Shown here: in pieces, positions 4,364-37,037 of the stretch
Position numbering within the stretch: the stretch's first letter is position 1
How the letters are laid out: each line of letters starts with the position of its first letter
Virus record (IMG/VR): IMGVR_UViG_2541047915_000010
Span: 1-37,037 of that record
Length of the DNA: 37,037 nt
Strand: one strand, 5' to 3'
Origin: a virus
Taxonomy: Duplodnaviria > Heunggongvirae > Uroviricota > Caudoviricetes
Translations under genes and position numbers: made by a program
Notes under the pieces: generated by a model
Seen by the model: only the letters and a program-made list of their open reading frames with translations
What the model was told of the DNA's origin: nothing
The model's database searches: none

Positions 4364-7186
4364 ATGACGGCAGAGTACATCAGGGACTGGCAACAACCGC
4401 GCCACGCAGTGGGGCGTGAAGGAACGGGGATCCCCGCTCCTGAATCCGCGCTTTCCTCCTGGCTGGATGCCTACCGGGCAGAGAACGAGCACCGCCAGGA
4501 AATGGCTGATGCGGCGTTCTCCGCCACGCCGCTGGGCAACCTGATTAATAAAAGCCTGGACGCACAGGAAAAACAGGACAAAACCATCACACTGGCAGGA
4601 GACGCCAGAAAACAGGCACGCGGCGCGGTGGATGAAGCCATGGCCTCGCTGCGCCTGCTGCCGTCCTATCTGCGCGATCCGCTTATTCGCCACCTCTCCT
4701 TCCTGCGCAAAAAACAGGAAGCCGATCGTCAGAAAGGAAAAAACGCCAGGCAGGCAGAACGCTATGCGCGTGGGACCCTGCGCAAAATATTCGAACGTCT
4801 GGAGCGCACCGATCACCGCTGGCTGACACCGGGTTATCGCTCCCTTGCCGGACGCGAACGCCTGGACGATTTGCTTTACCTGCCGCAGCTCAACAAACAC
4901 CAGATAAAGACGCTGGCAACCATGACGGCGGCGATGTTCAGCAGCACCTTCGAAAAACTCTGCGATGGCTTTGGCGCGACCGATGGCGAGCTGACCATGG
5001 ATGTAACCCTGAAGGCGTATCAGATGCTGGCCCGCATGGCGTTACACCTGCACGCCATGCCTCCACATTATGACGCACTGACAACAGACAAAGACCGGAG
5101 GAACGAACCGGACACGGAGCTGCTGCCGGGCGCAATCCTTCGCCTGACCTGTGCGGAATGGTGGAAACGCAAACTGTGGCTGTTACGTTGCGAGTGGAGA
5201 GAAGAACAACTCCGCGCCGCCTGTCTGGTTTCCAGAAAAACATCGCCCTATCTGAGCCAGGACGCGTTAAGCGAGTTTCGCGCACAGCGCGAGAAAACAC
5301 GCGATTTCCTGAAAAGTTTCATGCTGGAAAACGAAGACGGGTTCACGATTGATCTCGAGACAGTGTATTACGCGGGAGTAAGTAACCCGGTTCACCGTAA
5401 GGCAGAAATGATGGCCACCATGAAGGGACTGGAACTTCTGGCCGAAGCCCGTGGCGACAGAGCGGTGTTTCTGACTGTCACCTGCCCGTCAAAATACCAC
5501 GCAACAACGGAGAACGGTCATCCGAACCCCAAATGGAACGGGGCCACCATGCGCGACTCCAGCGATTACCTGGTTAACACGTTTTTTGCGGCGGTCCGCA
5601 AAAAACTGAACCGCGACGGCCTGCGCTGGTATGGCATCCGCACGGTGGAGCCTCACCATGACGGCACCGTGCACTGGCATATGATGGTCTTTGCTCATCC
5701 GGAAGAAATCGACAGCATCGTGACCATCACCCGCGATATTGCCATTCAGGAAGACCGCCACGAGCTGGGCAATGATATTACTCCGCGCTTTAAGGTGGAG
5801 TACGTCGACGGCACCAAAGGCACGCCAACCAGCTACATCGCCACCTACATCGGAAAAAACCTGGACAGCCGCGCCGTGGATGGCATCGACCCGAAAACGG
5901 GCAAACCACGCGTTGACCACGAAACCGGAAAATCAATGGCCGAGAGCGTGGAGCGCGCCATCGGTTGGGCACGCCTTCACCGGGTCCGCCAGTTCCAGTT
6001 CTTTGGCATCCCCTCCCGTCAGGTGTGGCGTGAACTCCGCCGCCTTGCCAGCCAGATGGCACGCAACCCGGAAGGCCCGCAACGGCTGAAGGATGACGCA
6101 ATGGATGCGGTACTCGCTGCCGCTGATGCCGGATGTTTTGCCACCTACATAGAGAAACAGGGCGGCGTACTTGTTCCACGCAAAGACTACCTGATTCGCA
6201 CCGCCTACGACCTCGCCGATGAGCTGAACGATTACGGCGAACAGAGTGTACAGATTTACGGGATCTGGTCACCACTCATCGGGGAATCCTCCCGTGTGTG
6301 CACGCACCCGGATAACTGGAAGCTGGTAAGACGTAAACCGGAACAGGAAGGCAGCGCCCACGAAAATGGTTTTGACCTTCAGGGCGGCCCTGCCGCCCCT
6401 TGGACTCGTGGCAATAACTGTCCCCGTGTACAGGAAACGGACAACAACGGGACAGAACAGCCGGAAGAACGGCCAGCACCGTGGCCGCAGCTCCCTGACA
6501 GCGTTGAAGTGAACGAATGGATGCGCTCACTAAAACGGCACGAACGCCGGGCGCTGATGCGTTCGCTTCGTGACAAACAGGCAAAAAACAGCAGTGATGA
6601 AATGCAGAGCTGGACACAGAGCCGCAAACAGCAGCGGCCTTTGCCTGATAACCACGAATTACTCGCTAAAGAATGGCGGGAGTCTGCTGAATCTCTCGGC
6701 CTGCATATCGGTGAACAGCAGATGCAGCACCTGTTACGGGGCGGCAGTCTGTACGTTGACGGCAGCATCATTGCACCGCAGGGATTTGAAATTGTACGCA
6801 AACCGGATACCCGCCCGGACAGCCGAATCACGCAGCTCTGGCAGCGCCTGAGCCGTAACCACGGCGTAAGCAGTACGGAGATCCGCCATAACCCGGTCGC
6901 CAGCTATCTGGAACAGCTGGGGACATTAGACCCCGAAGCCGCCGCACGCCTGGCATCCACACTTCAGCAAGACCAGAACACCATGAAAACACCCGTTACC
7001 GTGCTTTCTGACATGCTGCGCGCCATCCGCGACGCAGAGCACGCACAGAGAATCAGTGAAACCACTGAACGCGCCCGCCGCAAAGCAGACCTGCTGCGGG
7101 GTGGCCTGACCAGTGGAAACAAAAAACAGACAGAAACGGGATTCACAAATCCCGTAAATGAGCAAAAAACGCGCCGCGATATATGA
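4364..7186 (+). CDS. A: Rolling-circle replication initiator / nicking endonuclease (P2 gpA family)
   Basis: 940 aa; HUH motif region GTVHWHMMVF and tyrosine pair in TSYIATYIGKNLD, as in P2 A; position after the early genes. About 180 aa longer at the C-terminus than P2 A as I recall it. Confidence 0.85.
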   Translation: MTAEYIRDWQQPRHAVGREGTGIPAPESALSSWLDAYRAENEHRQEMADAAFSATPLGNLINKSLDAQEKQDKTITLAGDARKQARGAVDEAMASLRLLPSYLRDPLIRHLSFLRKKQEADRQKGKNARQAERYARGTLRKIFERLERTDHRWLTPGYRSLAGRERLDDLLYLPQLNKHQIKTLATMTAAMFSSTFEKLCDGFGATDGELTMDVTLKAYQMLARMALHLHAMPPHYDALTTDKDRRNEPDTELLPGAILRLTCAEWWKRKLWLLRCEWREEQLRAACLVSRKTSPYLSQDALSEFRAQREKTRDFLKSFMLENEDGFTIDLETVYYAGVSNPVHRKAEMMATMKGLELLAEARGDRAVFLTVTCPSKYHATTENGHPNPKWNGATMRDSSDYLVNTFFAAVRKKLNRDGLRWYGIRTVEPHHDGTVHWHMMVFAHPEEIDSIVTITRDIAIQEDRHELGNDITPRFKVEYVDGTKGTPTSYIATYIGKNLDSRAVDGIDPKTGKPRVDHETGKSMAESVERAIGWARLHRVRQFQFFGIPSRQVWRELRRLASQMARNPEGPQRLKDDAMDAVLAAADAGCFATYIEKQGGVLVPRKDYLIRTAYDLADELNDYGEQSVQIYGIWSPLIGESSRVCTHPDNWKLVRRKPEQEGSAHENGFDLQGGPAAPWTRGNNCPRVQETDNNGTEQPEERPAPWPQLPDSVEVNEWMRSLKRHERRALMRSLRDKQAKNSSDEMQSWTQSRKQQRPLPDNHELLAKEWRESAESLGLHIGEQQMQHLLRGGSLYVDGSIIAPQGFEIVRKPDTRPDSRITQLWQRLSRNHGVSSTEIRHNPVASYLEQLGTLDPEAAARLASTLQQDQNTMKTPVTVLSDMLRAIRDAEHAQRISETTERARRKADLLRGGLTSGNKKQTETGFTNPVNEQKTRRDI

Positions 7187-7232
7187 AGCGCGCATAAAAC
7201 AGGCAAAAACGGGATTTCAGAATCCCGTAAAC
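7135..7232. promoter_or_regulatory. Two copies of a 20-bp palindrome upstream of parM (candidate parC centromere/operator)
   Basis: acgggattcacaaatcccgt (7137-7155) and acgggatttcagaatcccgt (7211-7230), each within a repeated caaaaacgggatt...atcccgtaaa context, flanking an AT-rich stretch (atatat at 7179-7184). Confidence 0.4.
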
Positions 7233-7262
7233 GATTAATTAATCAACATAAGGAAAAGCGAC

Positions 7263-8222
7263 ATGAAAATTTGTATCGACGACGGCTCCACCAACATCAA
7301 GCTGGCATGGACTGAGAACGGCGAACGCCGCAACGCCATCAGCCCGAACAGCTTCAAGTCGGAATGGTCTGCGCCGTTCGGTGGCACGCAGCCCGCGAAC
7401 TACATGCTTGATGGCGTGCGCTATGGTTTTGATCCGGTCAGCGATCGCTTTGTCCAGACGACCGACACGCAATACCAGTACAGCGATGTGAATGTCATTG
7501 CCATTCATCACGCGCTGGTCAAATCAGGCATCACACCACAGGAGGTGGATGTGGTTGTCACCCTGCCACTGAGCGAGTATTTCGACACAAACGCACAGCC
7601 GGACATGGCCAACATCAACCGCAAAAAAGCGAACGTTATGCGCCCGGTGGAGTACCAGAACGGCGAGGCATTCACTATCCGTAACGTGCGGGTTATGCCT
7701 GAGTCCATTCCGGCTGGCTTTAAGGCACTGGCTGACATGAGTCCGTTTGAATCCCTGCTGATTGTGGATTTGGGCGGAACCACGCTGGATGTGGCAAAGG
7801 TTCAGGGGCAACTGGCAGGTATCAGCCAGGTGTTTTGCGATCCACACGTAGGCGTTTCTCTGATGGCCGATGCCGTACTGTCAGTGATGGCCACTAACGG
7901 TATGCGCACCAGTCACCACATCGCCAATACCATTATCGAACATCGCCATGATGAAGCCTGGCTGCGCCAGCACATCCACAATGACGCGCATTACGCCAGC
8001 CTGATGGCGGTTATTCGTGAAAAGGAAGAAACACTGAAACAACGCGTGATCCGCGCGCTGGCGGTTTTTTCGGGTTACGGGCGGGTGATGGTTGTCGGTG
8101 GAGGGGCGGAGATTGTGGCACCCGCTATCCGCGAAGCCTGCGGAGTTAATGCGACTTTCATCGCGGACGGGGTGCCACAGTTTGCTCTGGTTAATGGGCT
8201 GTACGCAATGGACAAGGAGTAA
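7263..8222 (+). CDS. parM: Actin-like segregation ATPase ParM/StbA (type II partition)
   Basis: 319 aa; N-terminal phosphate-1 motif MKICIDDGSTNIKLAW and DLGGTTLD, VGGGAE motifs; strong collinear similarity to plasmid R1 ParM as I recall it; RBS AAGGAAA upstream. Confidence 0.85.
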   Translation: MKICIDDGSTNIKLAWTENGERRNAISPNSFKSEWSAPFGGTQPANYMLDGVRYGFDPVSDRFVQTTDTQYQYSDVNVIAIHHALVKSGITPQEVDVVVTLPLSEYFDTNAQPDMANINRKKANVMRPVEYQNGEAFTIRNVRVMPESIPAGFKALADMSPFESLLIVDLGGTTLDVAKVQGQLAGISQVFCDPHVGVSLMADAVLSVMATNGMRTSHHIANTIIEHRHDEAWLRQHIHNDAHYASLMAVIREKEETLKQRVIRALAVFSGYGRVMVVGGGAEIVAPAIREACGVNATFIADGVPQFALVNGLYAMDKE

Positions 8223-8636: not shown

Positions 8637-9044
8637 ATGAACAGAAAACAGAAACAAGAGTTGAAATACTTCTTACGTAAAGAAATTGCCAGGCTTGAAG
8701 ATGCAGAGTCACAATCATCAGAAATTCCGTTCGGAATGGATATCAACGACGCCCGTATGCTTCAGGCATACCGTATAGCTCAGGCTGCACTACAGACAAA
8801 ACCGTTAAATAACATACATGAAAAGTATGATTATTTTACGGATACCGCTTGCTTGCTGACATCTGAAGAACAAAAGATAGCCCAACTTTTAGGCGACGCA
8901 TGGAACCTGTATTTAACATTGCCAGTTGAGCATCCAATGGGTAGAGATGAATTTTGCCGGGCAATTCATCATTGCCAAAATATGGTGTTGGCACGCCCGG
9001 CCATCAGGGCGTTGGCCAGGAAGGGGCAAGGCTATAAAAGATAA
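8637..9044 (+). CDS. Hypothetical protein (cargo of the A-to-cos variable region)
   Basis: 135-aa ORF with an AAAGGA RBS, followed by a strong terminator; no motif recognised. Confidence 0.5.
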   Translation: MNRKQKQELKYFLRKEIARLEDAESQSSEIPFGMDINDARMLQAYRIAQAALQTKPLNNIHEKYDYFTDTACLLTSEEQKIAQLLGDAWNLYLTLPVEHPMGRDEFCRAIHHCQNMVLARPAIRALARKGQGYKR

Positions 9045-9046
9045 GT

Positions 9047-9078
9047 AAAACGCCCTCCTCCAGGGCGTTTATTTCAAT
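9047..9078 (+). terminator. Rho-independent terminator
   Basis: Stem aaacgccct / agggcgttt with loop cctcc, followed by atttc T-rich tail. Confidence 0.6.
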
Positions 9079-9104
9079 GCACAATAGTGCACAAATTTGC
9101 ACAA
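9078..9104. repeat. Three phased TGCACAA direct repeats (10-bp spacing), putative protein-binding iterons
   Basis: tgcacaa at 9078-9084, 9088-9094 and 9098-9104, with another copy near 9169-9175; in the non-coding region upstream of the portal gene where cos is expected. Confidence 0.4.
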
Positions 9105-9477
9105 TTTTTTTGAACGACTTTTTACCCTTCCGGCCCGCATGGCGGCTGGATCCGTCAAGGATCCGTGCGTGCACAAAAAAACGCGTTTTTTCTGCGCGCA
9201 GGTGACGGGGGAACAGCCCGCGTTTCAGGGGGTAAATAGCATTCCCTGAGCGATGTCGCAGCGACACAACAGAATGGCCATATTTCTCACGCTGAGCGTG
9301 AAAAAGATGTGAGGGCTTTTGATTTGATAGGGTGAAAGGTAAGGCCGTCAAAATCGCACTGAGGCGGCGAGAAAATACAGTCAACGCGGTGGGATTGCGT
9401 AAGAGTCTGACCGTCGATGGTGGCGATATACTGGAAGGCGTCGTGAAATTATCTGATTGATACAGGAGCTGGAGAGT

Positions 9478-22868: not shown

Positions 22869-23480
22869 TCAACTGGCTGCTGCCAGTGGTATTTCCGGCA
22901 AGTTGATATCTGGTGCCATGTTTATATCCATTGCGTTCAGCGCGTCTATATAATCCAGCACGGCATTAAGCCGGGTGGTTTCTGCCTGCGTCAACTTCCG
23001 CCCGGCCTGCAACTTCAACTGAATCAGACTTATGGAAGCCATTGCCGCATCAGCCAGTGACTGACGCTTGGTTTCTGCCGCTTCTACTGCGGCACGATGT
23101 TGTGCCTCAGTATCTGTCACCCATTTTTCACCATCCCATTTATCGTATGGTGTTAACGGGGCGATAGTGGTTGTATTTTTCGGGTAGTCACCCAGCGCCG
23201 TGATTTCTTCGGTGTTTCCCGTGTCAGTGCTATAGACGGTTTCACCACGATGGTCTGGCGCATACTCCCATGAACTTAAATTCTCCGAACGGCGGATAGC
23301 ATAGCCCGCTTTATGTGCGCCCGGGGCATCTAAACAGGAATTTGCCGGAATACCGACACCCACAGCAAGATATTCAGTTGATTCGGAAATATATTCCCGT
23401 GTCTCACCATCATAGTTATAAACGACGATGTTTCCTGCCTGTACGGCAATAAGGTCATCATTTAATATCGCGTTATTCAT
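22869..23480 (-). CDS. Tail fibre assembly chaperone (Tfa; P2 G / Mu U family), copy 1
   Basis: 203 aa; C-terminal ...LTQAETTRLNAVLDYIDALNAMDI...PEIPL is the Tfa signature; co-oriented with and downstream of cassette SvC. Confidence 0.75.
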   Translation of the reverse strand: MNNAILNDDLIAVQAGNIVVYNYDGETREYISESTEYLAVGVGIPANSCLDAPGAHKAGYAIRRSENLSSWEYAPDHRGETVYSTDTGNTEEITALGDYPKNTTTIAPLTPYDKWDGEKWVTDTEAQHRAAVEAAETKRQSLADAAMASISLIQLKLQAGRKLTQAETTRLNAVLDYIDALNAMDINMAPDINLPEIPLAAAS

Positions 23481-23875
23481 TATGCGGTTCTCACAATATA
23501 ATTGAAGGCAATATTGCGTGGGCGGGTTTCATTCCCCTCTGAGGATTCAGTTCTGTATTGACTGGTAAATCTACCGTTAATTGCACCTTGCCGGACGGCG
23601 TTATCTGTCGACAACAGACTATCCCCTCCTTTGTCATTTGGCACCAGCACCGTGTTATCCCACGCATCCCATGACCGAATATTATGATAATGACTTCCTG
23701 TTAACCACCCCTGCATGCTTAAGATGCCCCTTCCGGCATCCACCCCGCGCCCATCATCCCAGCCACGGATAAATTCACCGCGTAAATCCGGTAATTTATT
23801 GGTGGGATAAGCCCTTGCCAGTCTGGGATACATTTCAGAAGAAAATGCTGCACCGTTACATTTCAGCCAGCCCGT
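23480..23875 (-). CDS. Alternative tail-fibre C-terminal cassette SvC (inner, left copy)
   Basis: Minus-strand ORF 23480-23965; from TGWLKCNGAAFSSEMYP onward it is fibre-like, while the part above 23875 is read-through of the complementary arm. Confidence 0.5.
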   Translation of the reverse strand, partial: TGWLKCNGAAFSSEMYPRLARAYPTNKLPDLRGEFIRGWDDGRGVDAGRGILSMQGWLTGSHYHNIRSWDAWDNTVLVPNDKGGDSLLSTDNAVRQGAINGRFTSQYRTESSEGNETRPRNIAFNYIVRTA

Positions 23876-23879
23876 TGGT

Positions 23880-24308
23880 GTGCCCGTTCCATGGCCCTCA
23901 GCCACGCCGCCAACGGGGTGGCTGAAATGTAACGGTGCAGCATTTTCTTCTGAAATGTACCCCAATCTGGCAAAGGCCTACCCCACCAATAAATTACCGG
24001 ATTTACGCGGTGAATTTATCCGTGGCTGGGATGATGGGCGCGGGGTGGATGCCGGAAGGGGCATCTTAAGCATGCAGGGGTGGTTAACAGGAAGTCATTA
24101 TCATAATATTCGGTCATGGGATGCGTGGGATAACACGGTGCTGGTGCCAAATGACAAAGGAGGGGATAGTCTGTTGTCGACAGATAACGCCGTCCGGCAA
24201 GGTGCAATTAACGGTAGATTTACCAGTCAATACAGAACTGAATCCTCAGAGGGGAATGAAACCCGCCCACGCAATATTGCCTTCAATTATATTGTGAGAA
24301 CCGCATAA
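23880..24308 (+). CDS. Alternative tail-fibre C-terminal cassette SvC' (inner, right copy)
   Basis: 142-aa ORF identical to SvC over most of its length; followed by tfa copy 2. Confidence 0.5.
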   Translation: MPVPWPSATPPTGWLKCNGAAFSSEMYPNLAKAYPTNKLPDLRGEFIRGWDDGRGVDAGRGILSMQGWLTGSHYHNIRSWDAWDNTVLVPNDKGGDSLLSTDNAVRQGAINGRFTSQYRTESSEGNETRPRNIAFNYIVRTA

Positions 24309-24919
24309 TGAATAACGCGATATTAAATGATGACCTTATTGCCGTACAGGCAGGAAACATCGTCGTTTATAACTATGATGGTGAGACACGGGAATATATT
24401 TCCGAATCAACTGAATATCTTGCTGTGGGTGTCGGTATTCCGGCAAATTCCTGTTTAGATGCCCCGGGCGCACATAAAGCGGGCTATGCTATCCGCCGTT
24501 CGGAGAATTTAAGTTCATGGGAGTATGCGCCAGACCATCGTGGTGAAACCGTCTATAGCACTGACACGGGAAACACCGAAGAAATCACGGCGCTGGGTGA
24601 CTACCCGAAAAATACAACCACTATCGCCCCGTTAACACCATACGATAAATGGGATGGTGAAAAATGGGTGACAGATACTGAGGCACAACATCGTGCCGCA
24701 GTAGAAGCGGCAGAAACCAAGCGTCAGTCACTGGCTGATGCGGCAATGGCTTCCATAAGTCTGATTCAGTTGAAGTTGCAGGCCGGGCGGAAGTTGACGC
24801 AGGCAGAAACCACCCGGCTTAATGCCGTGCTGGATTATATAGACGCGCTGAACGCAATGGATATAAACATGGCACCAGATATCAACTTGCCGGAAATACC
24901 ACTGGCAGCAGCCAGTTGA
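24308..24919 (+). CDS. Tail fibre assembly chaperone (Tfa), copy 2
   Basis: 203-aa protein 100 percent identical to the minus-strand copy at 22869-23480 (track translations are identical). Confidence 0.75.
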   Translation: MNNAILNDDLIAVQAGNIVVYNYDGETREYISESTEYLAVGVGIPANSCLDAPGAHKAGYAIRRSENLSSWEYAPDHRGETVYSTDTGNTEEITALGDYPKNTTTIAPLTPYDKWDGEKWVTDTEAQHRAAVEAAETKRQSLADAAMASISLIQLKLQAGRKLTQAETTRLNAVLDYIDALNAMDINMAPDINLPEIPLAAAS

Positions 24920-24925
24920 ATATAA

Positions 24926-25405
24926 CTAAGCCGCCCTTACGATATAGTTAAATGCAATATTGCGGGGGCGGGTTTCACTACCACCTGTGTTACCAATACT
25001 TCCTCGTGAATGAAGCGTTGGTGATGGAATCAAACTCCCTCCTGTATTTGTGGCATCAAGCCCGCTGCCTTGCGTATATGTTTTTTTGAAAATCGTGGCC
25101 AACTCCCATTCATCCTTTGTGTCATATCCATCGTTAGCTACAACAATATGGCGGTGTTTTTCCAACATCCCGTTTTGAATGCTCAATAAAGCGCGTGCCG
25201 CATCAATTCCTCGCCCATCATCCCAGCCACGGATAAATTCACCGCGTAAATCCGGTAATTTATTGGTGGGGTAGGCCTTTGCCAGTCTGGGATACATTTC
25301 AGAAGAAAATGCTGCACCGTTACATTTCAGCCACCCCGTTGGCGGCGTGGCTGAGGGCCATGGAACGGGCACACCAACGGGCAGCGCAGAGCCTTCCCCC
25401 AAACC
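24926..25405 (-). CDS. Promoterless alternative tail-fibre C-terminal cassette SvB' (inverted copy of SvB)
   Basis: Minus-strand ORF 24926-25459; identical in protein sequence to SvB from GLGEGSALPVG to the C-terminus; abuts inverted crossover site 5 in frame. Confidence 0.6.
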   Translation of the reverse strand, partial: GLGEGSALPVGVPVPWPSATPPTGWLKCNGAAFSSEMYPRLAKAYPTNKLPDLRGEFIRGWDDGRGIDAARALLSIQNGMLEKHRHIVVANDGYDTKDEWELATIFKKTYTQGSGLDATNTGGSLIPSPTLHSRGSIGNTGGSETRPRNIAFNYIVRAA

Positions 25406-25419
25406 AACGTTTTCGTCTT
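25394..25419 (-). other. DNA-invertase crossover site 5 (inverted relative to sites 1 and 2)
   Basis: Plus strand ttcccccaaacc AA cgttttcgtctt, i.e. reverse complement aagacgaaaacg TT ggtttgggggaa. Confidence 0.6.
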
Positions 25420-25473
25420 TATCCCTACCTATACCAACTATGTATTTTTCACGAAACAAAGAGGATGTTTTTT

Positions 25474-26073
25474 ATGCAAATTGGCTATATTCGTGTGTCA
25501 ACAAATGACCAGAACACGGATTTACAACGCAATGCACTGAACTGCGCAGGATGTGAACTGATTTTTGAAGATAAAATCAGCGGAACGAAATCAGCCAGAC
25601 CGGGATTGAAAAAACTGCTCAGAACGCTATCAGAAGGAGATACGCTGGTTGTCTGGAAGCTGGACAGACTGGGCAGAAGTATGAAACACCTGATCACGCT
25701 TATTGAGGAATTGCGGGAAAAAGGTGTTAATTTCCGTAGCCTGACGGACAGCATTGACACATCAACACCCATGGGGCGTTTCTTTTTTCACGTCATGGGG
25801 GCTTTAGCCGAAATGGAACGTGAATTAATTGTAGAGCGTACACTGGCCGGGCTGGCAGCAGCACGCGCACAAGGACGCATTGGCGGACGTCGCCCGAAGT
25901 TGACAAAAGAACAACACGAGCAAATAGCGAGGCTGATTAAAAACGGTCATGACAGGAAACAACTGGCGATCATTTACGACATCGGCATATCGACGATTTA
26001 TCGTTATCACCCTGTAGGCGATATACAGGCTGAAGAAACAACCAGGCAGACTCAGGAAAATGAAAACCGCTAA
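25474..26073 (+). CDS. Serine DNA invertase (Hin/Gin/Cin/Pin family)
   Basis: ORF 25279-26073 trimmed to the ATG at 25474 (gagga RBS 9 nt upstream); MQIGYIRVSTNDQNTDLQRNAL... with catalytic Ser in RVST and a C-terminal HTH (GISTIYRY); about 199 aa. Confidence 0.9.
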   Translation: MQIGYIRVSTNDQNTDLQRNALNCAGCELIFEDKISGTKSARPGLKKLLRTLSEGDTLVVWKLDRLGRSMKHLITLIEELREKGVNFRSLTDSIDTSTPMGRFFFHVMGALAEMERELIVERTLAGLAAARAQGRIGGRRPKLTKEQHEQIARLIKNGHDRKQLAIIYDIGISTIYRYHPVGDIQAEETTRQTQENENR

Positions 26074-31832: not shown

Positions 31833-32942
31833 ATGACCGACACCACCATGCAATTGCTCAGTCAGGGCACAGACCCCGTGAAAATGCCGGATTTTGATAT
31901 TCTCGCGGAGGGTAAAACGCTGTCAGGCATGGCAGAGCGCCTGATGAGCCTGTCACTGACCGACAACCGGGGATTTGAGGCGGACCAGCTCACCATCACG
32001 CTGGATGATGCGGATGGTCAGTTGCAGCTACCGCCACGGGGCGCGCGCCTGACGGTTCTCATTGGCTGGAAAGGAGAACCGCTGACAGAAAAAGGCACTT
32101 ACATTGTTGATGAAATTGCTCATGAAGGACCGCCCGACAGACTGACCATTTCAGCCAGAAGCGCAGATTTTCGGGATGAATTTAACGTCAAGCGCGAAGT
32201 ATCTTGGCATGATGTGACCGTTGAACGCGTGGTGTCTGCAATTGCTCACCGATACGGCCTGAAACCGCAAATCAGCGAAATGCTGATGGATATTGAAATC
32301 GACCACGCTGACCAGACCGAAGAAAGCGACATGTCCTTCCTTACGCGCATGGCGGAAATGCTGGGCGCAATCACCACGGTAAAAAGCGGCAATCTGTTAT
32401 TCATCATGCCAGGTGGTGGCGTGAACGCACAGGGGCAGCCGTTGCCCTCGTTCGCCATTACACGCAGCAGCGGCGATCGCCATCAGTTCCGCATTGCTGA
32501 CCGCGAGGCGTATACGGGGGTACGCGCCTACTGGCTTGATCTTAATTACGGGAAAAAGAAAAAAGTCAGCGTGAAACGCCGCAAACCGCCAAAACCCAAA
32601 AAGGAGAAAAGCAGCAGTCGGGAAGGCGACTATATGGAAGGTGCGGAAGGCAACGTGTTTGTGTTACGCAAGACTTATCAGAACGAGCAGGCAGCAAGAC
32701 GCGCAGCGGCGGCAAAGTGGCAGCAGCTACAACGCGGAGCCGCATCATTCTCCATCACGCTGGCGCGTGGTCGTGCAGAACTCTATCCCGAAATGCATGG
32801 CACAGTGACAGGCTTTAAAAGCGAGATTGATTATCAGGACTGGATTATTGCAAAAGCCGAGCACACCATTGATAACAGCGGCTTTACCACGCAGCTTGAA
32901 CTTGAAGCAAAAATCCCGGAATGGATAGCAGAAACAGAATAA
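31833..32942 (+). CDS. D: Tail protein D (late gene D, gpD family)
   Basis: ORF 31701-32942 trimmed to the ATG at 31833 (RBS gggaggg); MPDFDILAEGK...LSLTDNRGFEADQL...ISARSADFR, basic KKKK..KPKKEK stretch and FTTQLELE end, as in P2 gpD. Confidence 0.9.
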   Translation: MTDTTMQLLSQGTDPVKMPDFDILAEGKTLSGMAERLMSLSLTDNRGFEADQLTITLDDADGQLQLPPRGARLTVLIGWKGEPLTEKGTYIVDEIAHEGPPDRLTISARSADFRDEFNVKREVSWHDVTVERVVSAIAHRYGLKPQISEMLMDIEIDHADQTEESDMSFLTRMAEMLGAITTVKSGNLLFIMPGGGVNAQGQPLPSFAITRSSGDRHQFRIADREAYTGVRAYWLDLNYGKKKKVSVKRRKPPKPKKEKSSSREGDYMEGAEGNVFVLRKTYQNEQAARRAAAAKWQQLQRGAASFSITLARGRAELYPEMHGTVTGFKSEIDYQDWIIAKAEHTIDNSGFTTQLELEAKIPEWIAETE

Positions 32943-33069
32943 ATCTCTTAAAAATATTATTTTTGAGATGTGCTTCTACACTGACAGTAAGAACAAAAGA
33001 TAATGTATCAGCCCACTAGATGTCAGAGGTTGGGGCATCAACCAGATGCTAACAATAATACGGATGTTT

Positions 33070-33106
33070 TTCCCACATGACAGAGGAAGTCAAGTATAAT
33101 CTTCAC
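33070..33106 (+). promoter_or_regulatory. Putative sigma-70 promoter for the 1039-aa ORF
   Basis: Perfect -10 hexamer TATAAT at 33095-33100; -35 is weak; about 90 bp upstream of the ATG at 33191. Confidence 0.3.
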
Positions 33107-33190
33107 AGTCCATCCCGTCCAAGGGAATATGACTCAATAGTAAAAGTTCCAGTTTAGTTAGTAGACCCACACTTTATAGAAGAGTAATTC

Positions 33191-36100
33191 ATGATTGGAC
33201 AATTTTTAAGTGCAACAGAGATTTTAGCAAAGAACTATGTTCGTAATAAAATGGTTAAAAATCCATTTTATTCGAATTTAAAATGGAATTTTATTGAAAA
33301 AAACATCATAAGATTAACATCCTCACCGGTTAAATCAGTACTTTGCATATCAGCTTTTTCATTTGTACTACTTTATGTTGGATATTTAAACGAATTATTT
33401 ATAAAAAATAATCTTTTACATTATTTCCCGTTTAGGCATTCATTAACCGAATGGCAAACAACCATTTTAAGTGGCCAATTGACAATTATTGGTATTGTAT
33501 ACCCCCTTGTTATAGGTTTAGTAAGTGTCTTATTCCAAAAAAAGGCAGATAGAAAAATAGCCCAAACTGCTTATCAGCGTTACTCAGGATTCATGCTTGC
33601 TGGACTCAGCGGGCTTTTCTTATCAGGATTTATACTTCTCAGTGTACTAATTAAAACTGTCTTTGGAAGTTATCTTTATGGTATAGCTTGTCTAATCAGC
33701 ATATTATGGCTTTTGATAAACATAGTTCTTTCTATTTGGTTCTTTATCGTGAGTCTTGAAATTCTTGATGATGTAAAACGGCAAATAATTATAAAGCGAT
33801 ACATTGCCTTCGAAATAGTAATGCCCCATATTTGTAACAAAATCTCAGCCAAGCTTAGGTTATACCCTATCTATCAAAAACATAACTATTCAAATTTAGA
33901 AATCAAGCAAGCCGATTACAAAGGAGAATACATATCTGTGGCTAGCGGTTATTCTAAGGAAGATGAGTTAAGTTTATATCACCGTCCTTTTCAACTTACT
34001 CTTAATCTTATTAATTGCCAACTAAAAAAGAAGAATCATTTTGCGTCATTTGTCATTGGTGATAATCGTGCAAAAGAAACAGAATCCACGGGTAAGATAC
34101 TTTTTAGCGTTAAAAATATCAAACCAGACAGCTTATTAATAAAAATACTTAAGCAATGTTTTTATAGGGCTCCGATTAAAGGAGGAGATTTTTCCGTAAG
34201 TCTTACAATGCAGGCTATAACAGCAGATACGTATATGTATCTGCGGGATTCTGATCTCATTAGTTTTGACGATGCTATCTCTGCATTAATTAATAACTTT
34301 AATAATCTCTGCGATTTGTATTTTTTTCAAGATGATAATACCAACAATAACTTCTTACTGATCACTACAGAATTATTTGAACGGAGTTTTCAATATGAGT
34401 TTTCAGATGAAGTTTATAAAATATCAAATAATTCCATGGATAAAATTAATCTTTCTGAAAGATTTTTTGAATTATGTCTTTGGAGCGGAGTGCGTATTAT
34501 CAATAATAGAAAACATCTTATCAGCAATGAACTTTGTATCTATATGGGAATTACTCGTTCACAATGGTCAATATTAACAGAATGGTTCCGAAACAACCAA
34601 TCACTCTTAAATGCCTCGCTTCGTTCACGTTATAATCGTATATTAAGAACCTATACCACTGTTTGGGAGCAATATCAAGAAAGCATAAACTTTCGTTTCT
34701 GCAATACAGAGAATTCAGATTTATTTGAATTATTTTGCAAAACGCAACTACAAGAACTTCCATCGATGATTATTGATGCAACACAGACTCGCGATCCTTC
34801 TACTATTGATACAGCCGTCGATCTTATTAACCGATGGCAGCACTCAATGAATATTGACAGCCATTCGGTAGAAAAATACAGTTACAAAGGCCAGCTTTTT
34901 AACCCGGGTTTTTTCATATCCAAAAAACTAAACTTCAATTCAGACAGAGAGTGGTTCAATATTGCCATCATAAATGCGTTGACTGACATGCGTATATGCA
35001 CATGTCTTTATCTGACATCAAGAATCAATACTTCTGACAAACTAATGACACATTACATTAAACTTATTTTAGAGGGTAAACTTATTGACCAAACCGGTGG
35101 ATATGAAACTCCCACTGAAGAAATTGATAATGCAAGCCAACTAATCAAGATATTAATTAGAATCTGCCTGTGGACATGGTCTGAAAATATGGAGCATAAT
35201 GGGTGGATGAATAGTTTAGCAAGGCGTTTACGTGACTATGATAAAACAGACATGGTGATGGGCAGAGTTTACAGTAATGTTTTTGACTGTGGATTTATTG
35301 ATATGGAACAATCATGGGTTCAGCTATTATTAATTTTTTCTAACAAGAACGATAGCGTATCAAAAGAAATAAAAGAAGCAATAGAAAACAACTATATAAC
35401 ATATCGTGAGAAGCAACGACTCATTGGAGTATTATCAAAAATTTGTAACTCCATCGAATACACTAAAATCAAGCTGACTTTAACATTGGACGATCTCCAA
35501 ACAAAAAAAGAAAACTTAAGAAAGTTGCTTCAAGAGCATATTAACATGCTAAAGAAAGATCTTGATATGAGACTTCAGGATGCTGCCATAGATGTACATC
35601 GACTAGATAGCACTGCACGTAAAACATCAGAACATCTTCGTAAACGCATCAAGAAAACGCTCCCTCTTTCACTTTTCAAATCTATTGATTTTAAGCAGGC
35701 TAGCGATTGTTTCACAAAACATAAGATATCTATTAAGATAGATAAAGAACCGTATGCCGAAGGAATAGAATCCATCCCTTATATCAATGAAGGTGATATT
35801 CAAGCAGACTTAATTCTCAAGGACATCCAGAGAATAATACTTTCAAATTTATTTAGCACTGGCTGTTCGCAACATACCGTAATAGAAGATTTCAATATGT
35901 TGATTGATCACATAAAATCATCTGCTGACTTGGCTGGCAAACTGGTTCTTGTGATGAGTAAAGAGATCTTTCAGCAATATAATCGTATGCTTTTCGATAA
36001 TCCCAACCTCAGAGAACTAATGAGAAAAAATGATGATGGCTCTATGAACATAACTACTGAATCCGGTACCTGTAAGGTTTACTTCTTACCATTTGTTAAT

Positions 36101-36310
36101 CAACCATTTTCTCTTGTGGTAAAGGATAACTACTTCACTAAATTAATTATTAGAGAATATGATAATAATAAGTTAGTAAATGTCACTTCAGAGAATATCA
36201 AAAGTGACTCAGATAAATTCAAGCTAACTCTTAACTATGAGTTGAATATAGTATTTGAAGGAAACGCTGATTTAAAAATAGCTCACTCGCAAAGAGTGAC
36301 ATCAGAATAA
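33191..36310 (+). CDS. Large uncharacterised membrane-anchored protein (N-terminal 4 predicted TM helices plus a soluble domain of about 850 aa); cargo gene between D and ogr
   Basis: Uninterrupted 1039-codon ORF in a strongly AT-rich segment (Lys/Asn/Ile-rich); hydrophobic helices at roughly aa 50-66, 91-116, 132-154 and 162-192; no catalytic motif recognised by eye. Confidence 0.8.
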   Translation: MIGQFLSATEILAKNYVRNKMVKNPFYSNLKWNFIEKNIIRLTSSPVKSVLCISAFSFVLLYVGYLNELFIKNNLLHYFPFRHSLTEWQTTILSGQLTIIGIVYPLVIGLVSVLFQKKADRKIAQTAYQRYSGFMLAGLSGLFLSGFILLSVLIKTVFGSYLYGIACLISILWLLINIVLSIWFFIVSLEILDDVKRQIIIKRYIAFEIVMPHICNKISAKLRLYPIYQKHNYSNLEIKQADYKGEYISVASGYSKEDELSLYHRPFQLTLNLINCQLKKKNHFASFVIGDNRAKETESTGKILFSVKNIKPDSLLIKILKQCFYRAPIKGGDFSVSLTMQAITADTYMYLRDSDLISFDDAISALINNFNNLCDLYFFQDDNTNNNFLLITTELFERSFQYEFSDEVYKISNNSMDKINLSERFFELCLWSGVRIINNRKHLISNELCIYMGITRSQWSILTEWFRNNQSLLNASLRSRYNRILRTYTTVWEQYQESINFRFCNTENSDLFELFCKTQLQELPSMIIDATQTRDPSTIDTAVDLINRWQHSMNIDSHSVEKYSYKGQLFNPGFFISKKLNFNSDREWFNIAIINALTDMRICTCLYLTSRINTSDKLMTHYIKLILEGKLIDQTGGYETPTEEIDNASQLIKILIRICLWTWSENMEHNGWMNSLARRLRDYDKTDMVMGRVYSNVFDCGFIDMEQSWVQLLLIFSNKNDSVSKEIKEAIENNYITYREKQRLIGVLSKICNSIEYTKIKLTLTLDDLQTKKENLRKLLQEHINMLKKDLDMRLQDAAIDVHRLDSTARKTSEHLRKRIKKTLPLSLFKSIDFKQASDCFTKHKISIKIDKEPYAEGIESIPYINEGDIQADLILKDIQRIILSNLFSTGCSQHTVIEDFNMLIDHIKSSADLAGKLVLVMSKEIFQQYNRMLFDNPNLRELMRKNDDGSMNITTESGTCKVYFLPFVNQPFSLVVKDNYFTKLIIREYDNNKLVNVTSENIKSDSDKFKLTLNYELNIVFEGNADLKIAHSQRVTSE

Positions 36311-36318
36311 TATCTTTG

Positions 36319-36349
36319 ACGGCGCTCCTTAGAGTGCCGTTCGTTTATT
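36319..36349 (+). terminator. Putative rho-independent terminator after the 1039-aa ORF
   Basis: Imperfect stem acggcgctc / gagtgccgt with loop ctta, followed by tcgtttatt. Confidence 0.45.
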
Positions 36350-36445
36350 AACTAATGCTAAAAATCATTATATAGAGAAAGTCATGTTTAAATCTTAGAG
36401 AATACAACCTAGAATAGTGCAAGCACTACAATAAGAGAGGTCGCT

Positions 36446-36706
36446 ATGTTCCGTTGTCCGCTTTGTGGCGCATCTGCCCGTATCCGCACCAGTCGTCCGG
36501 AAAATGATTCAAACACCGTGAGACAAAAGTATTATCAGTGTAACAATCTAGAATGCGGCGTATGTTTCTCAACACTGGAAGCCTTCCACAAATTCACTTC
36601 AAAGCACGTCTCCCCCATTCACTCATCAGAGGGCATCCCGTGGCATGAACTGCCAACTTCACACAGAGGAAACAATCAGATGAGTTTGCCCTTACCTCAG
36701 AATTAA
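36446..36706 (+). CDS. ogr: Late gene activator Ogr (zinc-finger, Ogr/Delta family)
   Basis: MFRCPLCGASARIRTSRPENDSNTVRQKYYQCNNLECGVCF has the CxxC...CxxC arrangement and parallels P2 Ogr (MFHCPLCQHAAHARTSRY...YHQCQNVNCSATF); agagagg RBS. Confidence 0.85.
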   Translation: MFRCPLCGASARIRTSRPENDSNTVRQKYYQCNNLECGVCFSTLEAFHKFTSKHVSPIHSSEGIPWHELPTSHRGNNQMSLPLPQN

Positions 36707-36896
36707 CGAGCAGAATTGCCGGAGTAACAAAAAAGCGATAGATTACGCGCGGGTGCCTTTCGGCTGATGGTCGGAGGGAATACCTGAAGGCCAGATGTGG
36801 AAAGGCCCCGGAAAACATTTTTGTTTAACCGAGGCCCTAACCGTCTACCCTAAGCAAGTGATAGGTTAGCGCCTCCCCGAAAAAGGAGCAAGCGCT

Positions 36897-37037
36897 ATGT
36901 CGCAAAAATCGCTTACGGCCATCACGTTCTGCGTGACGGCAATCCTCATCATCTGGATGCTGCACGGTTCGCTGTGCGAAATACGGATGAGCTTCTGGGG
37001 AGCGGAGTTTGCGGCGTTCTTACAGTGTAAGCAGTAA
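36897..37037 (+). CDS. Hok/Gef-family type I toxin-like small membrane protein
   Basis: 46 aa: MSQKSLTAITFCVTAILIIWMLHGSLCEIRMSFWGAEFAAFLQCKQ; N-terminal TM helix and SLCEIR...AAF, as in Hok (..KSLCEIRYRDGHREVAAF..); AAGGAG RBS 8 nt upstream; the stop codon is the last 3 nt of the window. Confidence 0.55.
   Translation: MSQKSLTAITFCVTAILIIWMLHGSLCEIRMSFWGAEFAAFLQCKQ

Follow-up and report, generated by a model that had tools for sequence, protein, structure and literature searches.

The old/tin and Z/fun hotspots of P2-like phages have been described previously (PMC9122126), and single-protein abortive-infection genes with transmembrane (TM) effectors that reside in such hotspots (Rousset et al. 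2022, PMC9122126; Moura de Sousa et al. 2026, 10.64898/2026.02.27.708500) are the closest described counterparts of the locus analyzed in this work. Here, we report the analysis of an AT-rich island located between the genes D and ogr of a P2-family prophage, and of the 1039 amino acid (aa) membrane protein that is the single cargo of this island. The window, that is, the entire stretch of DNA that was analyzed (37,037 nucleotides (nt); IMG/VR record IMGVR_UViG_2541047915_000010, positions 1-37,037), is a prophage of the P88/Xuanwuvirus type integrated beside ihfA, with the usual Q-P-O-N-M-L head genes and with D divergent from the FI-FII-E-T-U tail genes, as in the P88-type group. The island is a cassette of one gene, acquired horizontally and accessory rather than core, and its product is most likely a stand-alone inner-membrane anti-phage protein that would act by abortive infection or exclusion.

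The deviant composition and the variable occupancy that characterize phage-hotspot cargo (morons and defence cassettes) are both observed at this locus. The GC content of the island is 0.333, against 0.533 in the rest of the window (0.30-0.36 over positions 33001-36500 compared to 0.48-0.61 in the flanking phage genes), and that of the cargo coding sequence (CDS) is 0.329, with 0.297 at third codon positions (GC3), which bears out the strikingly AT-rich insert reported in the initial annotation of this DNA, made from the sequence alone. In related prophages, the empty D-ogr junction is an intergenic region of 42 bp, and therefore, the island adds about 3.46 kb. A query consisting of the 3' end of D, the island, and ogr was matched against 5426 complete Escherichia coli genomes. 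The D and ogr backbone is present, at 90-95% identity, in 1202 of these genomes, whereas the island itself (≥99% identity) was found in only five. In an evenly spaced sample of these matches, 36 of 52 junctions are empty (span of about 900 bp), which is also the form found in the sequenced phages P88, P884B11, and Chuche, and 16 hold other single genes, in either orientation. Given that the same backbone is mostly empty or carries other cargo, the gene is accessory and not an invariant part of the phage core.

The alternative cargos, with a GC content of 0.335-0.425, belong to at least 8 types, including a DUF3800 protein, a DUF2971 protein matching the PADLOC candidate PDC-S31, a 500-aa PIN_4 protein, a SEC-C/YecA-family protein, a protein weakly matching HEPN_RiboL-PSP, and three proteins without any match. 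Unrelated cargos share conserved cassette ends (positions 32943-32970 and 36380-36445 of the window; loci L011, L012, and L043-L045). The left end is similar to GCAACTTAAATGTATTAACTCAG, and the right end is GTTGGAnTnnGAGC...ACAACTTAGAATAGCG, continuing into the ogr ribosome-binding site; a short CAACTTA-like repeat occurs on both sides of the insert. The right end encompasses what looks like the ogr promoter, TTTAAA-17-TAGAAT in the window and TTGGAG-17-TAGAAT in other cassettes. Thus, the D-ogr junction of P88-like prophages is a single-gene cassette hotspot, distinct from the classical old/tin (A-Q) and Z/fun sites, and open-access papers and bioRxiv preprints yielded no description of this site in its own right. 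Whatever the function of the cargo analyzed here, further candidates are readily available from a hotspot whose cassette ends are conserved. In common with the described hotspot abortive-infection genes, the cargo is a low-GC gene between core genes that is swapped between near-identical prophages, encodes a predicted membrane module, has an apparent promoter of its own, and is accompanied by defence-like neighbors or replaced by defence-like alternative cargo. We also considered the possibility that the closest alleles of the gene (71% and 54% identity) reside in D-ogr junctions of other P2-like prophages, but these are located in other islands.

The cargo gene is a single open reading frame (ORF) of 1039 codons, exactly as initially annotated, and all homologs align from its first methionine. 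With the base composition of the island, the stop probability per codon is 0.0757, so that one stop is expected per ~13 codons, and 1039 stop-free codons would occur by chance with a probability of ~10^-35.5; in the other five frames, no ORF exceeds 72 aa. The proposal that the gene is autonomously expressed stands only in part. A TATAAT element and a terminator-like hairpin (36318-36341) do exist, but the -35 element matches the consensus in only 3/6 positions, the TATAAT is not among the sites returned by a consensus promoter scan, and the hairpin is statistically undistinctive, with three terminator-like sites in the region compared to 2.6 expected from shuffled sequence. Hence the promoter and terminator of the cargo gene are plausible but weak.

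Proteins identical to the cargo product are on record in E. coli and Shigella. A word-indexed search retrieved 184 relatives, and an exhaustive profile search, 508 clusters at 50% identity, 157 of them with E ≤ 1e-30. The family members are almost all 1030-1150 aa long, align end to end, and share the same architecture; apparent short or two-stretch matches, which might have indicated shuffling of the TM module among different proteins, are either fragments or proteins with the same architecture. The hosts include Enterobacterales, Acinetobacter, Psychrobacter, Shewanella, Vibrio, Pseudoalteromonas, Alteromonas, Kangiella/Aliikangiella, and Bermanella and, beyond the Gammaproteobacteria, one Desulfobacterota genome (a Desulforhopalus). 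The query has no match in Pfam, NCBIfam, PHROGs, or PADLOC at permissive thresholds (0 families in PADLOC-DB v2.0.0 at E ≤ 10), 45 diverse members searched against Pfam and PADLOC gave nothing usable (a lone marginal match to PD-T7-3, E = 0.005), and profiles of the full-length family and of its C-terminal domain match no PDB sequences. Marginal matches to NEMO, SdpI, Dynactin, PD-T7-3, and MOC1 were regarded as noise. The absence of a known family is thus upheld, no characterized non-defence family was assigned by the profile searches, and, as far as these comparisons go, the family belongs to no catalogued defence system; in this respect, it differs from the hotspot abortive-infection class, this protein matching no PADLOC, Pfam, or PHROG model.

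The one competing identity comes from the databases themselves, given that RefSeq/PGAP records give some of the identical proteins the product name 'MFS transporter'. Other records label the same protein 'hypothetical', and neither the query, at E ≤ 10, nor any of the 45 diverse members matches an MFS or any other Pfam/NCBIfam profile. Furthermore, an MFS transporter has 12 TM helices (2x6), whereas this protein has four, all within aa 49-187, and 80% of its length is cytoplasmic, with predicted solenoid and capsid folds. With neither a profile match nor the 12 helices, this identity is effectively refuted, and we assign it a negligible probability.

Hydropathy and the AlphaFold2 (AF2) model agree on the N-terminal block of about four TM helices and the soluble part of about 850 aa that were noticed initially. 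The N-terminus, the loop 116-131, and the segment after TM4 are rich in lysine and arginine, and therefore, both termini are predicted to face the cytoplasm (N-in/C-in), which makes the product a predicted inner-membrane protein with four TM helices and a cytoplasmic portion of ~850 aa. A Walker A motif is absent from the 1039-aa protein, no NTPase profile matches it, and the occurrences of the HEPN-type motif Rx4-6H are not conserved, in line with the initial reading. The AF2 model of the full protein, built from 26 family members, has a mean predicted local distance difference test score (pLDDT) of 80.2 and a predicted template modelling score (pTM) of 0.63, and consists of a helical membrane bundle (aa 1-224), a small alpha/beta domain (236-390), for which no fold match was obtained, an all-alpha, solenoid-like domain (400-820), and a C-terminal alpha/beta domain (831-1032). 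A Foldseek search of the full-length model against PDB returned no match below E = 1e-3.

The C-terminal domain is predicted to adopt the HK97 phage-capsid fold. In the model, the order of its elements fits HK97, namely, a hairpin, a 21-residue helix, a beta/alpha/beta/alpha/alpha core, and long terminal strands, and the hairpin/E-loop, the spine helix, and the P- and A-domain core that define this fold are all present in the predicted structures. The identity to capsid/encapsulin-fold proteins is 5-12%, without a sequence-profile relationship, and no Pfam or PHROG capsid profile was matched (Phage_capsid, P2-type capsid, and Linocin_M18 profiles). Capsid proteins and encapsulins, which share the predicted fold, are free subunits of ~260-400 aa, whereas here, the domain forms the C-terminus of an integral membrane protein of 1039 aa. 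Unlike at capsid and encapsulin loci, no portal, protease, scaffold, or cargo genes adjoin the gene; an encapsulin system consists of a free shell and an adjacent cargo enzyme with a targeting peptide, whereas here the domain is part of a membrane protein, and there is no conserved neighbor. The nearest conceptual precedent is Ccm of SaPIbov5 (PDB 7rwz, chain A), an interference protein with the capsid fold that a mobile element encodes. Ccm, however, is a soluble, stand-alone capsid homolog that builds small capsids for the satellite, whereas the protein described here is anchored in the membrane, combines a solenoid with a conserved TM module, and has no linkage to packaging genes. The predicted HK97 domain and alpha-solenoid partly overtake the initial statement that the function cannot be read from the sequence, in that they suggest a testable mechanism; the defence role itself is proposed through guilt by association.

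The most conserved part of the protein is not the capsid-fold domain but the TM2-4 block, which is 63% identical between the clade of the window and the clade of a 1069-aa plasmid-encoded paralog, compared to 16-27% for the other segments, with the lowest identity (16%) in the capsid-fold domain and TM1; the segments rank in the same order within clades. Among 45-108 divergent members, the invariant or nearly invariant residues are Q96, P105, G138, S140, W173, N177, and F184 in the TM region and, in the soluble part, P825 and F829 together with the solenoid residues listed in Table 1. The invariant 'GRxY' loop (aa 686-700, nt 35246-35290) is the least confident segment of the model (pLDDT 36-54) and is a candidate interaction or gating loop. 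Because of the invariant polar residues and of a constraint far above that of the rest of the protein, TM2-4 appears to be a functional core, that is, an effector or channel rather than a passive anchor, and the pattern fits cytoplasmic recognition domains that evolve more freely around this core.

This conservation pattern bears on the possibility that the protein poisons capsid assembly without causing cell death. By analogy to Ccm, which redirects helper capsid assembly, the HK97 domain would be a dominant-negative subunit that sequesters capsomers at the membrane and blocks the formation of procapsids, with the membrane part serving for localization only. Such conservation of TM2-4 (63% vs 16-27%), with invariant polar residues, is hard to reconcile with a passive anchor, and the solenoid of ~420 aa is left unexplained; we consider this explanation improbable.

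The genomic company of the family was compared in more than 20 contexts. No partner gene is conserved across clades, and the gene is solitary everywhere, consistent with the single-gene system initially proposed; its GC content is below that of the flanks in 10/10 loci tested. In 40 PLSDB records, the gene is carried by IncF conjugative plasmids from E. coli and Klebsiella (a clade represented by WP_013362823.1), where the neighbors include an AAA_23/AAA_21 ATPase, a RES toxin, DUF3800, the HEPN protein pEK499_p136, VapBC, and a YobI-type ATPase. In P4-like islands, the neighbors are AAA_15/AAA_21 ATPase, FRG, HNH, and DUF3800 genes, and one element pairs the family gene with a CAP12-PCTIR TIR protein. 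A chromosomal islet of Serratia has the order DUF3800, HNH_2, family gene, an ORF without assignment, and TIR_2, and the Pectobacterium loci contain a KAP NTPase or Mrr plus transposase remnants. The gene is also found on a Pantoea plasmid and in integrative elements with CbtA/CbeA and RadC genes. Decayed copies are represented by split ORFs in Psychrobacter and Vibrio (L020 and L024), a truncated ORF in Alteromonas, and a copy disrupted by IS903B in a Klebsiella plasmid. Altogether, this is the distribution expected of a mobile, frequently exchanged gene of the defence type, an argument from guilt by association.

In Aliikangiella, Kangiella, and an IMG/VR contig (L018, L025, and L036), a type I restriction-modification (R-M) operon encloses the family gene, with hsdM-hsdS on one side and hsdR on the other, in overlapping or abutting ORFs. 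PrrC, RloC, and similar genes are 'second-line' defence genes embedded in type I R-M operons. At these three loci, the family gene resembles them in its location between hsdS and hsdR, but it lacks anticodon-nuclease or ATPase domains, and the embedding is limited to a single R-M lineage; this arrangement is found neither in the window nor at most of the other loci. A multi-gene system including hsdM, hsdS, and hsdR was accordingly rejected, these being the type I R-M operon of that lineage. Two other putative partners were also discarded, a downstream pair of genes (247 aa and 323 aa) that is shared by only two related alleles, and an upstream 200-aa integrase remnant that is confined to the Pectobacterium/Pantoea clade.

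The genomic contexts weigh on two further explanations. Under the first, the protein would be a self-assembling, membrane-tethered shell or scaffold with a non-defence function, such as maintenance of (or addiction to) a mobile element, membrane homeostasis, or transport, whereby pentamers or hexamers of the capsid-fold domain would arrange 20-24 TM helices into a channel. A patchy distribution of low-GC genes on plasmids and in hotspots with frequent decay, the repeated co-location with defence genes, the embedding in an R-M operon, and the lack of a conserved partner or cargo gene such as accompanies encapsulins all speak against such a function, which we rate as having a low probability, on a par with the poisoning of capsid assembly. 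The second explanation is superinfection exclusion (Sie), in which the TM module would touch an entry factor at the inner membrane and block DNA injection, with the cytoplasmic part being regulatory or binding ejected phage proteins. A prophage-encoded inner-membrane protein that is a moron and whose conserved core is the TM module would be compatible with this role, but the known Sie proteins are small, blocking injection would not call for 850 cytoplasmic residues that include a capsid-fold domain, and the family, being common on plasmids and islands and found in an R-M operon, is not prophage-specific; this role appears even less probable than the preceding two.

Two recurrent features of these neighborhoods are of separate interest. 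DUF3800 genes (L011, L008, L009, and L051) recur near family members in four unrelated contexts (including plasmid, P4-like island, and Serratia islet), and one of them is an alternative cargo of the D-ogr junction; none of these DUF3800 proteins matches PADLOC, and DUF3800 may be another uncharacterized defence-island gene. In the Pantoea/Pectobacterium clade, the upstream 200-aa integrase-like ORF (7122-7724 in both L037 and L054) is separated from the family gene by exactly 277 bp in two different genomic settings, which suggests that the two move together as a small mobile unit.

Returning to the protein as a membrane-bound anti-phage system, bacterial immunity is commonly triggered by major capsid proteins, as in the case of Avs8 (PMC12236752), and membrane proteins are recurrent suicide effectors (PMC9122126), which makes a sensor-effector logic plausible. 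We infer the following sequence of events. The variable HK97-fold domain would reside in the cytoplasm as a capsid mimic and recognize, or co-assemble with, head intermediates of an infecting phage, either capsomers of the capsid protein or its scaffold, portal, and protease partners. The alpha-solenoid would pass this engagement or clustering on to the nearly invariant TM2-4 module, which would oligomerize or open, compromise the membrane, and halt phage production, that is, cause abortive infection. We consider some anti-phage role, or a role against other mobile genetic elements, to be probable, whereas the full chain from capsid-fold sensing through the solenoid to a membrane effector is a tentative proposal to which we give distinctly less credence. 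What stands of the defence or exclusion system initially proposed is the cargo status, the single gene, the four-helix anchor, and the lack of a known family; the role itself is argued from the defence neighbors, the R-M embedding, and the hotspots.

Defence proteins known to sense capsids include CapRel-SJ46, Lit/Gol, and PifA. These sensors, like Avs8, are not themselves capsid-fold proteins, and their effectors are nucleases, toxins, or proteases, as opposed to the membrane module proposed here. If the proposed mechanism holds, the similarity to the capsid-sensing Avs8 (PMC12236752) would lie in the class of trigger (HK97-fold head proteins) and in the sensor-effector logic. Avs proteins also have helical-repeat sensor domains but require a STAND NTPase, whereas the protein analyzed here has neither a Walker A motif nor an NTPase domain.

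Several observations weigh against the proposed mechanism. The fold assignment derives from AlphaFold models for which the underlying alignments are shallow (26 and 15 sequences), no link to capsid proteins exists at the sequence level, a profile search of PDB sequences finding no capsid, and hhalign gives a probability of 3% for homology between the capsid-fold domain and gpN, the capsid protein of the prophage itself; the segments aligned in that comparison are in equivalent regions but were not counted as evidence. No catalytic or pore motif is identifiable in the protein, and the excess of variability in the capsid-fold domain over the other soluble domains is modest. The HsdM proteins of the R-M-embedded lineage are 74-80% identical, while the embedded family genes are 35-57% identical, and therefore, the three loci represent one long-retained association. 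Copies in Acinetobacter are located amid ordinary chromosomal genes (a carboxylase and a CLC channel). A prophage with a capsid sensor would also need to escape self-triggering upon induction. Finally, no phenotype, paper, or defence-database entry is on record for any family member, and open-access papers and bioRxiv preprints, searched for the accessions, for HK97-fold defence or membrane proteins, and for capsid mimics, yielded no earlier account.

The broadest version of this proposal is that a widespread immune family has exapted the HK97 capsid fold as a sensor, such that a membrane-tethered mimic opens a four-helix membrane module; we regard this as possible but doubtful, slightly more so than the mechanism of this individual protein. 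If true, it would amount to a new principle of immunity, namely, sensing or poisoning of phage head assembly by a domesticated capsid fold that is wired to a membrane effector. Mammalian Fv1 is a capsid-derived restriction factor, and the family would be a prokaryotic counterpart of such factors and a third use of the HK97 fold, beside virions and encapsulins; the list of its applications (virions, gene transfer agents, satellite capsids, and encapsulins) would grow to include a domain within an integral membrane protein. All tailed phages share the HK97 fold, so that a sensor built from it could be difficult to evade, and the variable surface of the domain could set specificity. The roughly 500 clusters of this family, which lack a Pfam entry and are misnamed 'MFS transporter' in RefSeq, would thereby gain a function; one paralog is located on IncF conjugative plasmids of clinical E. 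coli and Klebsiella. The features of the locus are compiled in Table 1.

Table 1. Positions of the island, its boundaries, and the predicted parts of the cargo protein in the window
Feature	Position (nt)	Strand	Remarks
Gene D (late control D / tail protein)	31833..32942	+	left hotspot boundary; 1110-nt CDS in NZ_CP134716
AT-rich cargo cassette	32943..36445	+	3,503 bp between D stop (32942) and ogr ATG (36446)
Candidate -10 element, TATAAT	33095..33100	+	read directly; weak -35 CCCACA at 33072-33077
1039-aa membrane protein CDS	33191..36310	+	ATG start; all homologs align from M1
Four predicted TM helices	33335..33751	+	aa 49-67, 93-115, 132-152, 163-187; hydropathy and AF2 helices
TM2-4 block	33455..33781	+	aa 89-197; most conserved module, proposed effector/core
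Small alpha/beta domain (predicted)	33896..34360	+	aa 236-390, AF2 secondary structure; shortened in some distant members
All-alpha solenoid-like domain (predicted)	34388..35650	+	aa 400-820; conserved W492, E493, W549, N595, D599, R692, Y694
C-terminal HK97-like (capsid/encapsulin-fold) domain (predicted)	35666..36295	+	aa ~826-1035
Terminator-like hairpin	36318..36351	+	10-bp stem, 6 GC pairs, weak T tail, 8 nt past stop codon
Right cassette end with sigma-70-like ogr promoter (putative)	36387..36415	+	TTTAAA-17-TAGAAT in window; TTGGAG-17-TAGAAT in other cassettes
ogr (Ogr/Delta zinc-finger late activator)	36446..36706	+	right hotspot boundary

Apart from the island, several features of the prophage deserve mention. 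The RefSeq annotation of gene D is inconsistent among near-identical prophages (L001 5147-6000 vs L002 4891-6000), the gene appearing either as the full 1110-nt 'late control D' or as an 801-nt 'VgrG/Pvc8 family' CDS accompanied by a small overlapping pseudogene on the opposite strand. Between ogr and the ihfA-side end of the prophage, a gene annotated as Hok/Gef toxin in identical prophages (36897-37037) and a sok-like RNA match (36751-36910; 46 bits, below the Rfam gathering score of 59, E = 3e-8) form a type I toxin-antitoxin module. The classical old/tin hotspot, between the replication gene (4364-7186) and the portal gene, contains an unusual cargo for a P2-like phage, a ParM/StbA-type actin-like plasmid-segregation ATPase (7263-8222; Pfam StbA_N 1.8e-82, ParM_N 6.3e-69), which is followed by AT-richer ORFs without a Pfam match (8637-9044 and, on the minus strand, 9004-9384). 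The tail-fiber region (22869-26073) is an invertible module resembling the G segment of Mu, with two opposed sets of Collar (tail-fiber C-terminal) and Caudo_TAP (assembly) genes; the two 203-aa tail-fiber assembly proteins have identical scores, and a serine resolvase/invertase gene (25279-26073) adjoins the tail-fiber gene sets.

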